A DNA stretch of 64,000 nucleotides from Amoebidium appalachense (GCA_963693365.1 CAVNZM010000004.1:5954564-6018563), one strand, 5' to 3'. Positions 36,601 to 39,600 are shown, counted from the stretch's first letter. Translations and numbers: made by a program. The notes: a model not told the origin generated them from the letters alone.

Positions 36601-39600
36601 TGTGTGTGTGTGTGTGTGTGTGTGTGTGTGTGTGTGTGTGTGTGTGTGTGTGTGTGTGTGTGGTGTCGGGAACCCGTGTGGTTTCAATGCCTGCTTGTGT
36701 GGTCTCTGCCTGCTTGTGTGGTCTCTGCCCCCCCTCTCCCCCCTCCCCCCCCCCCCCCCCCCCAAAAAAAAAAAAAAAAAAAAAAAAACCACTACCCACC
36801 CATTACCCCCATCCCCCCCTCCCCCCCCCCCCCCCCCCCCCCCCCCCCCCTCCCCCCCCCCCCCAAAAAAAAAAAAAAATAAAAATAAAAAAAGCCTCCT
36901 TGTTCGTCCCTTTCCCCCTTGTTGCACTGTATCTGCGTGGCGTGTTCCGCTTTTCTCTGTACCCACAATTACCATAATTTTACGGGAGGACTTTCTGGTG
37001 CAACTCTGTATGTAGTGTGATGTTCACAGCAACTTGGATGCCATGAGTGCCCACTTCCCACGTTTTGCGCTTTTGAGTTGTTTATATACCCCCACCTCTC
37101 TCCCCTCCCTCCCTCCCCCTCCCCCCCCCCCCCCTGCATAAGCAACCCTGCTCGTCTTTGATCAAGACGGGTTGACCCACCCAAGTTCAGTTGATGCTGC
37201 TGTCTGAGTTGGAGCGTCGTATATACGCGGGCTAAGGGGTCGAAACTCAGACGCAATTGATGACTTGGGCCCTCCCTGAGGATGGGCTCTGCTTATGACG
37301 CATACTGTGCGCATGGCTGATGCTGCATACTTGAATGTTTGCCTTTGCATGTGTCCTGCATCATGCTTCTCATCGTCTATGCGTACTTCGTACTGTGTTC
37401 CGCATTCAAACCCCCCCTGTCTTCTTTCAGAGGTGTCCTTTCAGGACAGACCACTGTGTGGAGACATCTTTACTTCCATGCAACCGGGCATGGTTGCTCT
37501 GTGTCGTGCATCTGTAAGCACATACGCGTTTGTCGCTGCACTGCATTAGTTTGCACACACATCTTCACCGTTTTGCTCACCTTGCTTGCATAAGCAACCC
37601 TGCTCGTCTTTGATCAAGACGGGTTGACCCACCCAAGTTCAGTTGATGCTGCTGTCTGAGTTGGAGCGTCGTATATACGCGGGCTAAGGGGTCGAAACTC
37701 AGACGCAATTGATGACTTGGGCCCTCCCTGAGGATGGGCTCTGCTTATGACGCATACTGTGCGCATGGCTGATGCTGCATACTTGAATGTTTGCCTTTGC
37801 ATGTGTCCTGCATCATGCTTCTCATCGTCTATGCGTACTTCGTACTGTGTTCCGCATTCAAACCCCCCCTGTCTTCTTTCAGAGGTGTCCTTTCAGGACA
37901 GACCACTGTGTGGAGACATCTTTACTTCCATGCAACCGGGCATGGTTGCTCTGTGTCGTGCATCTGTAAGCACATACGCGTTTGTCGCTGCACTGCATTA
38001 GTTTGCACACACATCTTCACCGTTTTGCTCACCTTGCTTGCATAAGCAACCCTGCTCGTCTTTGATCAAGACGGGTTGACCCACCCAAGTTCAGTTGATG
38101 CTGCTGTCTGAGTTGGAGCGTCGTATATACGCGGGCTAAGGGGTCGAAACTCAGACGCAATTGATGACTTGGGCCCTCCCTGAGGATGGGCTCTGCTTAT
38201 GACGCATACTGTGCGCATGGCTGATGCTGCATACTTGAATGTTTGCCTTTGCATGTGTCCTGCATCATGCTTCTCATCGTCTATGCGTACTTCGTACTGT
38301 GTTCCGCATTCAAACCCCCCCCCCCCCTCCCCCTCAAGCCCGCCCACCCGCCCGCCGGAAGGATGGGCTCTGCCTATGATGCATTTTTTGGTGGACTCTG
38401 CAAGTTGTTGCGTTGTGTTGTCCGCTATGAAGGTGCACTTTACGTTCTTTGACACACCCCAAGTGAAGAAGTATCTGAGTTGGGTTGAAAGTGTGATTGG
38501 TTCTCTATGACACATTCTAACCCTTCCCCTTACCCCCCCCCCCCCCCCCCCCCCCCCCCAGCAATGCCGTCAACAGTGTGCGCTCACTGCTTGGGCTGGC
38601 CAAGTGTGTGGGTGGTGCCCCCAAGCTGCAGGCAACCCTGTCGGCTGACGAATATGCAAAGTTCGTGGCTAAGGTAAAGTGCTTACCCCCCCCCCCCCCC
38701 CCCCCCCCCCCCCCCAAGTTCGTGGCTAAGTAAAGTGCTTAACCCCCCCCTCCCCCCTCTCCCCCCTCACACACACACACACACCGTTTTTCTATTTCAC
38801 CTCGTGACTCTGCTTCCTTACCTCCCACCGTTTGTCTCTGACGTTCAGACTAATTGGTCATTAGAGACCGTCCCCCCCCCCCCCCCCATCCCCTCCTCCC
38901 TTCAATCTATCCCCCATTGTTTTTACCTTGTGTCGGTCTGTGGATTTGGGACGCTGATGGTGTTGTTTGGATAGCAGTGTTGTATGCTGACTTCTCTCTC
39001 TCTTTCTCAACCAAAAAAGGTAAAATAACCAGTACATAATTATAGTACTAATATTGAGACCCACAATATTATTAATAATAGTAAATAAAGCATGCACTGA
39101 GCTGTCTGGAGCAGGTTCAGCCGTCGCTGGACAAGATGGCACAGGCAGTGGAGAATGCAAAGCACCACGGCAACAAGGACCAACAGTATCTGGGTGATAG
39201 GGTGCTGGAGGTAGGTGATTGTGTGTGTGTGTGTGTGTGTGTGTGTGTGTGTGTGTGTGTGTGTGTGTGTGTACGTGTAGGGTAGGGTGGTGTTGGTGTG
39301 TGTGTGTGGGGGGGGGGGGGGGGGGGGGGGGGGAGGGGGAGGGGGTTTGCAAGACAATTAGTTGGATGATCTGTTTTTTTTTTTTCCTGGATGCCATACC
39401 GTATTTAGCACTTTTATTGGCGGTGTGTGTGCATGTTTGGGGGTGCAGGTGCAGGTTTTCATGTTTGTAGGCGTGCGTGAATGCTTCTCGTGCTTGCTCC
39501 CGTGTGCGTGTGTATGTACGTTGACACTTGCTTGTTCGTGCGTTTGTGAGCGTGTGGTGTATTGTATGGCCCATGTGCATGCCCGTTGGACCACGAGAGG

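Follow-up and report, generated by a model that had tools for sequence, protein, structure and literature searches.

Insertions in the window and their host genes

The window, which is the whole 64-kb stretch of Amoebidium appalachense DNA that was analysed, consists of intron-rich eukaryote DNA with exons of CLU1, a UBE2G-like gene and DNA polymerase subunit B. Its sequence is rich in C, G and CA runs, with 112 runs of at least 10 C and 60 runs of at least 10 G. By BLAST of a repeat unit and by self-comparison, nine related insertions were located, all at the places given in a preliminary description of this DNA: five of variant A, three of variant B and one deleted relative, C. The repeat unit is 452 nt long and non-coding, and is arranged head to tail in arrays. 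The array A5 (37135-38314, plus strand) comprises 1180 nt, corresponding to 2.6 identical head-to-tail copies, with a poly-C tract on each side; it lies upstream of the host exon at 38562, in what is presumably an intron. One full 452-nt unit occupies positions 37418-37869 of the plus strand, starting behind one C7 run and closing with the next.

The other four variant A copies are also on the plus strand. The 5'-truncated A1 (10635-10876) and A2 (12916-13316; 0.9 unit) each contain a full hammerhead motif with the predicted cut after 10676 and 13109, respectively. A3 (15141-15335) begins 6 nt downstream of where the cut is predicted and is without block S of the motif, and A4 (18076-18640) is 565 nt or 1.25 units long, has a pseudo-LTR geometry and contains one full copy of the motif with the predicted cut after 18440. 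Among the variant B copies, B1 (16589-16754, plus strand) has mismatches in stem III and P4 of the motif and ends about 20 nt short at the 3' side, and B2 (19854-20043, plus strand) carries an intact variant B motif with a 13-bp stem III and the predicted cut after 19875. The 5' end of B3 (63828-64000, minus strand) is cut by the end of the window; its motif has A13 replaced by G and is predicted to be dead. Copy C (38359-38521, plus strand) is a diverged and deleted B-like relative with the ribozyme in pieces only.

The starts of A1-A5 were determined to be at unit positions 35, 335, 83, 164 and 1, respectively (37135 being unit position 1). All five copies stop at unit position 276, immediately before the C7 run of the unit (37863-37869, also 37411-37417, plus strand), which is the putative priming site. 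By chance, five ends would fall so close together with a probability of about 1.5e-8. This 3' end is a strong preference and not an absolute rule, because B1 stops about 20 nt early; loose contig ends in the public runs X14 and X1 represent further early 3' ends. The repeated parts are 100% identical inside A5 and inside A4, and the mismatches of A1-A4 to A5 amount to 14/242, 18/394, 8/194 and 23/565 positions, so that A copies differ by 4-6% between loci. The preliminary description had claimed differing starts with a common end at the C7 run, and two copies longer than one unit (1.25x and 2.6x) whose units are the same within an array and different between loci; both claims were borne out.

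On the circularised unit, no ATG frame exceeds 84 aa, and the sole Pfam match of this longest frame was below the cut-off. Neither true LTRs nor coding capacity were found by self-comparison and a Pfam scan of the window. The earlier claim that the element has no LTR or ORF thus stands for the frames and for true LTRs, and, due to the Penelope-like pseudo-LTR geometry of the 1.25x copy, is valid for LTRs in the strict sense only. The unit has no Pol III head (tRNA, 5S or 7SL), A box or poly-A tail; the one B-box-like match is at chance level. In a comparison with Rfam at the gathering and E-value thresholds, no real match was obtained in the element. The fold of the whole unit was not clearly better than those of shuffles (z -1.9 on the plus and -1.0 on the minus strand), and that of the circularised unit was not rod-like, with 64% of the nucleotides paired. 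A 45-nt segment (37580-37624, plus strand) with two predicted hairpins (z -2.4) is common to full-length variant B in the public runs.

The 5' flanks contained at least 70% C over 20 nt in 7 of the 8 visible cases, compared with 4.8% of background sites (p about 5e-9). The same level was reached by all nine 3' flanks, where the C-run may partly belong to the element. The insertions are therefore embedded in poly-C tracts, as had been described. Target-site duplications are unreadable inside poly-C. The copies sit in sense orientation inside host genes, and the C and G runs of the CLU1 gene occur in the ratio 55:20, which makes the sense bias inseparable from the tract bias; the sense and intragenic placement follows the latter. 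Such a placement would give the copies of the element free transcription. Two copies are situated in the C tract before a splice acceptor, namely C (acceptor 38561) and B3 (an AG that probably serves as the acceptor of a minus-strand gene).

The permuted hammerhead motif

In variants A and B, three hammerhead blocks were recognised in the non-circular order S (cut site), G (GAAA) and C (CUGAnGA). The conserved core begins with a strand ending in GUU, followed by GG and a 10-nt palindrome, the sequence of which is not the same in A and B. It continues with GUC-GAAA, the complement of the first strand and a conserved GAUGAC, and ends with GGGYCC, three pyrimidines, CUGAGGA, U and GGGCUC. The core nucleotides C3-A9 (CUGAGGA), G12-A15.1 (GAAA), U16.1 and H17 are present in both variants. 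The full core set (CUGAnGA, GAAA, UH and G10.1-C11.1) was found in 6 of the 7 aligned copies, the exception being the A13G change of B3. Twister, hairpin, pistol and HDV-like readings, based on consensus structures, were dropped once the hammerhead blocks fitted.

The array A5 carries the motif three times on the plus strand, at 37201-37289, 37653-37741 and 38105-38193, with the predicted cuts after 37210, U37662 and 38114, respectively. In the second copy, the predicted stem III is formed by 37653-37661 and a 3' strand reaching to 37705, and the predicted stem I by 37663-37665 and 37725-37727. The GUC at 37691-37693 is the predicted 3' strand of stem II, with the GAC at 37714-37716 as the likely 5' strand. 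GAAA is located at 37694-37697, and CUGAGGA at 37728-37734 is followed by an extra U at 37735. An extra helix, P4, is predicted between 37719-37724 and 37736-37741. The stems I and II of 3 bp are short, and the GUU at the predicted cut is a weak hammerhead cleavage triplet. The predicted cut is spanned by 7 of the 8 A and B copies.

Stem III is 9 bp long in A and 13 bp in B. Between the variants, two-sided changes were detected in stem III (G-C to A-U) and in stem I (A-U to G-C). Three ribozyme sites vary among the A copies; one of them is unpaired, and at the other two the change results in a G-U pair. The variant at 38174 is carried by 4 of the 5 window copies. In the comparison of A with B, 98.6% of the cells were paired, and 27-54% when the structure was slid. 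The covariation score, which rests on two subfamilies, was reached by 33 of 500 shuffles; the underlying alignment gaps one stem I pair in B, and the two-sided change in stem I was counted separately. The variability inside the ribozyme (3/94) was lower than that outside (27/358), though not significantly (p 0.16).

A descriptor covering all six block orders gave seven matches in the window, all in the order SGC and all inside the element; type I CGS, GSC and SCG gave none, and likewise all five other orders. None of 20,000 shuffled units matched any block order. As the descriptor was written after the sequence had been seen, a conditional control was added, consisting of loci with both core motifs at the right spacing. 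Such loci, which looked like chance matches, numbered 68 in viral and at least 119 in metagenome contigs, and 67 of the 68 and 116 of the 118 among the matches listed were scored. A stem III of at least 5 bp together with a stem I of at least 3 bp was detected in none of the 67 viral loci and in one of the 116 metagenome loci among the matches listed, and the single passing locus (L129) resembles a bacterial coding sequence. The full model of the second fold described below was reached by 0 of 186 control loci among the matches listed. Family-specific patterns gave no relatives in the viral and metagenome contigs. Judging from the sequence, the motif is very probably a true hammerhead homologue.

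Two folds of the motif were compared. In the plain SGC fold, the strand before GAAA is paired with the bases that follow CUGAGGA-U, so that stem II has two pairs followed by G.G when one inserted base is allowed, or 6 pairs in A and 4 in B with two inserted bases. In the second fold, it is the conserved GAC downstream of stem III that contributes a strand of stem II; this GAC forms three Watson-Crick pairs in all eight copies. The bases after CUGAGGA-U then form with GGGYCC an extra 6-bp helix stacked on the 3-bp stem I. The summed duplex energies outside stem III were similar for the two folds in A5 (-13.4 vs -12.3 kcal/mol) and favoured the second fold in B2 (-14.1 vs -8.5 kcal/mol). In the nested minimum-energy fold (z -1.1), CUGA is buried in a hairpin and stems I and II are absent; the extra helix of the second fold is contained in this nested prediction. 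According to the modelling, it is probably a separate strand that provides stem II, together with one extra helix, and this arrangement is somewhat preferred over the plain fold.

Blocks S and G are separated by a linker whose palindrome is perfect and 10 nt long (37670-37679, also 37218-37227 and 38122-38131, plus strand), and variant B has a different 10-nt palindrome in the same place. The calculated energies of pairing with a second copy, -17.8 and -15.8 kcal/mol, compare with -2.6 and -1.7 kcal/mol for pairing with itself. The palindrome may therefore be a dimerisation site; these energies recall the dimer-dependent hammerheads of tandem repeats described in the available parts of PMC4209133. 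It is reasonably probable that the hammerhead cleaves.

Transcription and the proposed route of mobility

At least half of the unit's words were contained in 20 of the 24 listed public sequencing runs (8 studies). The head-to-tail joint was found in all six runs whose contigs were aligned, and the tandem is therefore not an assembly artefact. In two DNA runs, possibly those of the source organism, 11,527 and 15,053 contigs aligned to the stretch, which means that the family is large and varied. The summed depth of the DNA runs climbed toward the 3' end and collapsed after the C7 run, and the intron stretch 38374-38457 was uncovered in the RNA runs; neither contig depth nor contig holes can rank the parts.

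The host exon at 38562-38673 (plus strand) is not part of the element. In the runs X9 and X17, both from one sample, a contig leaves this exon at 38673, skips a GT-AG intron and resumes in the exon at 39115, and these two runs are therefore RNA. Each of them covers 29 of 29 unit bins and contains the joint, and X9 contains variant B as well. The unit is transcribed, the unit and its joint being present in the spliced RNA of one sample; this is seen in contigs, and the joint occurs in DNA also. Intronic read-through would give the same picture in RNA contigs as transcription of the element. Contigs reveal neither strand nor ends nor circles, and uncut multimers or template jumps result in the same arrays.

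A fixed 3' end combined with ragged 5' ends is the mark of target-primed reverse transcription, and the element is almost certainly a retroposon inserted by target priming. The end geometry and the C-tract bias support the preliminary description in that a non-coding retroposon with retrozyme-like geometry was target-primed at poly-C/poly-G tracts. The primer was likely the G strand of the target, because the common end falls at the internal C7 run. As the predicted cut is spanned by all but one of the eight A and B copies, a cut linear monomer was not the template, which was either a ligated circle or a multimer left uncut; we regard a circular template as an evenly balanced proposition. By analogy with known systems, the partner enzyme is probably of the Penelope type, with the Naiad/Chlamys group as the likely best match. 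In a profile scan of the 64-kb window for an autonomous partner, 0 of 150 stretches matched an RT or GIY-YIG family.

The explanation that accounts best for the whole, to which we give about even weight, is a short non-coding poly-C family with an S-G-C hammerhead, the RNA of which is copied in trans by a Naiad/Chlamys-like enzyme of the Penelope type. The unit and its joint would enter RNA, in which they were seen in contigs, most likely through host pre-mRNA because the copies lie in sense inside genes. The hammerhead is predicted to cut after GUU once per unit, freeing 452-nt monomers from the arrays, possibly best as a dimer formed via the palindrome. A host ligase, as in animal retrozymes, would close the monomers into circles. 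The endonuclease of the partner would nick the G strand of a poly-C/poly-G tract, and the freed G end would pair with the C7 run of the RNA, where reverse transcription would begin, hence the fixed 3' end. The enzyme would then pass the rejoined cut site and drop off after 0.4 to 2.6 rounds, resulting in variable 5' ends and in identical units within an array.

A more far-reaching version is put forward tentatively. It describes a genome-encoded, high-copy circular RNA parasite with an unpublished hammerhead topology, which excises itself from host introns only at places with arrays, is switched on by dimer formation through the palindrome and is guided by C7 to prime at poly-G. In this version the S-G-C core would have an opening between A9 and G10.1 that the extra helix closes, and such rewired hammerheads would be the ribozyme that has stayed hidden on the Naiad/Chlamys side of the Penelope elements.

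The same element and the same type of partner could also operate with no circle, the arrays arising from uncut multimers or template jumps in the manner of Penelope pseudo-LTRs, and the hammerhead being slow, vestigial or merely trimming the transcript. Non-autonomous Chlamys elements such as MRC1 form pLTRs and multicopy head-to-tail insertions with no canonical hammerhead, according to the available parts of PMC8557442, and the hammerheads of Penelope-like elements (PLEs) are often poor cleavers in vitro in the corresponding parts of PMC4209133. The spanned cut site and the identical units are expected equally without a circle, and the active fold differs from the nested minimum. However, the five start points with one fixed internal C7 end suit a circle, as does the closed graph of the unit, with the joint occurring in RNA contigs, and all core nucleotides have been kept in two subfamilies with widely differing flanking linkers. 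We consider this reading rather unlikely.

The preliminary description had proposed priming at broken poly-G, which in its present form means that the C-run anneals to G strands at spontaneous breaks and is extended by an endonuclease-less RT of the Athena/Coprina kind. In the available parts of PMC8557442, attachment of EN-minus PLEs to telomeric overhangs that are G-rich and exposed occurs via complementary repeats beside the hammerhead, and the window contains 112 C and 60 G runs of at least 10 nt. However, the same source describes EN-minus PLEs as generally restricted to the ends of chromosomes, and the present copies are dispersed (nine in 64 kb, with the 11,527 and 15,053 contigs of the two DNA runs). 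As (C)n targeting has been published for the mostly endonuclease-encoding Chlamys group (PMC8557442, in part), break priming is less likely than endonuclease nicking and is judged improbable.

Similarly improbable is a SINE-like passenger of an ordinary, non-Penelope LINE that favours C-runs and for which the hammerhead is merely carried along. A fixed 3' end and truncated 5' ends would be seen with any target-primed retrotransposon, and no partner was found among the 150 window stretches. However, the unit is without the tRNA head, poly-A tail and A box, its single B-box-like match being at chance level, and partial tandems, hammerheads and (C)n targets are features of PLEs (PMC8557442, in the parts available). 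A satellite or assembly artefact with a chance hammerhead match, for which the 100% within-array identity (possibly due to polishing) and the late writing of the descriptor might speak, is very improbable in view of the copies, which are dispersed and have unique flanks, of the joint in 6 of 6 runs, two of which (X14 and X15) belong to other studies and bear other organism labels, and of the chance controls of 0/20,000, 1/183 and 0/186 (control loci among the matches listed).

Significance and comparison with known systems

The preferred explanation remains a non-coding poly-C family mobilised in trans by an enzyme of the Penelope type. By its sequence features, the present case appears to be a fully non-coding, (C)n-targeted and transcribed tandem family of two subfamilies with an S-G-C hammerhead motif. 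In the available, mostly non-subscription literature on permuted hammerheads, Naiad hammerheads and protist retrozymes, no report of an SGC-type ribozyme in a eukaryotic genome was found, and within the same literature the SGC form is in print in the original report only. If the motif cleaves, a non-circularly permuted hammerhead published from environmental RNA only would be at work in a eukaryotic genome, retrozymes would be extended to a third ribozyme wiring, and it would be suggested that Penelope-like groups reported as hammerhead-less carry rewired ones. The layout is missed by standard descriptors and Rfam. The 90-nt motif is directly testable by one transcription assay, and the 452-nt unit with its fixed priming site is a compact substrate for studying how Penelope-type enzymes make tandems and whether circles are copied.

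The comparison with retrozymes is stronger than the preliminary description could know, because the unit carries a permuted hammerhead. Animal non-LTR retrozymes are cut and are joined by ligases of the RtcB type, and Penelope-like elements are believed to copy them (Cervera & de la Pena 2020, PMC7229834; Li, Clavereau & Pollet 2026, 10.64898/2026.07.22.740005; both in the parts available). According to the accessible text of PMC7229834, the Amoebidium unit resembles them in being a small non-coding head-to-tail unit with one hammerhead each and without LTR, PBS or PPT, as well as in the presence of its RNA and in a presumed Penelope-type partner. In contrast, the animal hammerheads described there are of type I (C-G-S) and circles were demonstrated for them, whereas the Amoebidium unit has the order S-G-C, fails the type I test and has circles by prediction only. 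The Amoebidium insertions are also strongly (C)n-directed and intragenic, whereas the retrozymes of Li et al. are described in the available part of that study as excluded from introns (10.64898/2026.07.22.740005).

The order type SGC was named, and its cleavage shown, by Eckert et al. 2023 (PMC10085705), whose 583 examples came, in the parts of the report available, from metatranscriptomes only. The S-G-C order, the conserved core, the extra U after A9 and the pseudoknotted stems are shared by the Amoebidium motif with these ribozymes (HRIMA-1 and variants). None of the published examples, in the same parts, is from the genome of a known organism, whereas the Amoebidium motif is genomic. The SGC descriptor given there requires a stem I of at least 4 bp, linkers of 0-8 and 0-15 nt and N7 = U. 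The Amoebidium motif fails it with an S-G linker of 21-25 nt containing the palindrome, N7 = G and a stem I of 3-4 bp, and the probable separate-strand stem II with the extra helix breaks the assumption of an uninterrupted block C made in the accessible text of PMC10085705. Due to these limits on N7, linkers and stem II, the published SGC search would have missed the motif.

Homopolymer targeting itself is not new, as (C)n targeting has been published for Chlamys Penelope-like elements and poly-C targeting alone was thus already known: in the available parts of Craig et al. 2021 (PMC8557442), (C)n is preferred in 13 of 36 Chlamys rows, and the group mostly encodes the endonuclease. The Amoebidium element resembles the non-autonomous Chlamys (MRC1-type) and Naiad elements of that source in 5' truncation, partial tandems (pLTR) and insertions of multiple head-to-tail copies, and in (C)n targets that hide target-site duplications and the lack of a canonical hammerhead. 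Its 3' end, AA followed by a C-run, corresponds to those of two (C)n-targeting Chlamys consensi, in which an S-G-C ribozyme was absent by eye. Most of the Chlamys/Naiad clade is reported to be without a hammerhead in the same parts of PMC8557442. Among the 13 GTCGAAA matches in the accessible part of its supplement, 4 were in S-G-C order by eye, all in the Naiad file, and in 3 of these 4 stem II pairs best with a separate strand.

A further likeness is found with the EN-minus PLEs Athena and Coprina, in which, according to the available parts of PMC8557442 and PMC4209133, a C-rich RNA stretch near the hammerhead pairs with a G-rich DNA primer. These elements are telomeric, encode RT and have type I hammerheads, whereas the Amoebidium element is dispersed and non-coding. 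Taken together, the family joins retrozyme-like workings and the SGC block order, probably rewired further, with the insertion pattern of non-autonomous Chlamys elements.

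B-type subfamilies and the segment common to variants A and B

Additional B-type subfamilies of the 452-nt poly-C-inserted repeat were detected in the public DNA runs, where contigs leave the window sequence at 38163 and 38032. In these subfamilies, the linker before GGTCGAAA differs and stem III of the predicted hammerhead is kept. Variant B extends upstream into sequence absent from the window, an extension that may represent an autonomous element's tail.

The 45-nt segment at 37580-37624, which lies in the head-to-tail array 37135-38314 (+), is common to variant A and to the full-length variant B of the public runs. 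The segment folds into two hairpins, one of them with a palindromic TGATCA loop, and contains a B-box-like 9-mer, the match of which is at the chance level. The segment is a candidate recognition signal for the RT.

The diverged B-like copy at 38359-38521 (+) consists of a B-like 3' half fused directly to a B-like block S (the cut-site block of the hammerhead), followed by a second 3'-end-like motif at its end. This copy is perhaps a short-unit deletion derivative.

Host genes and other repeats

A CLU1/eIF3-p135-like host gene with many small exons occupies 5900-30000 (+). Host-gene exons were also assigned at 51227-51409 (+, UBE2G1-like) and 62366-62611 (-, DNA polymerase alpha/epsilon subunit B). 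The host-gene introns carry long poly-C tracts on the sense strand, some of them immediately 5' of the acceptor AG.

A second tandem array, unrelated to the 452-nt element, was found at 41201-41733 (a 76-nt unit repeated about 7 times at 97-99% identity); it ends close to a C-rich tract, and the hammerhead descriptor, covering all block orders, gave no match on it. Two 75-nt direct repeats of 91% identity are located at 55677-55820 within a long minus-strand frame.

Chance match from the pattern scans

The contig L069:1-2379, a chance pattern match unrelated to the 452-nt element, is small, repeats with a period of 1603 nt and contains a frame of 346 aa. The product of this frame presumably resembles a rolling-circle replication protein.
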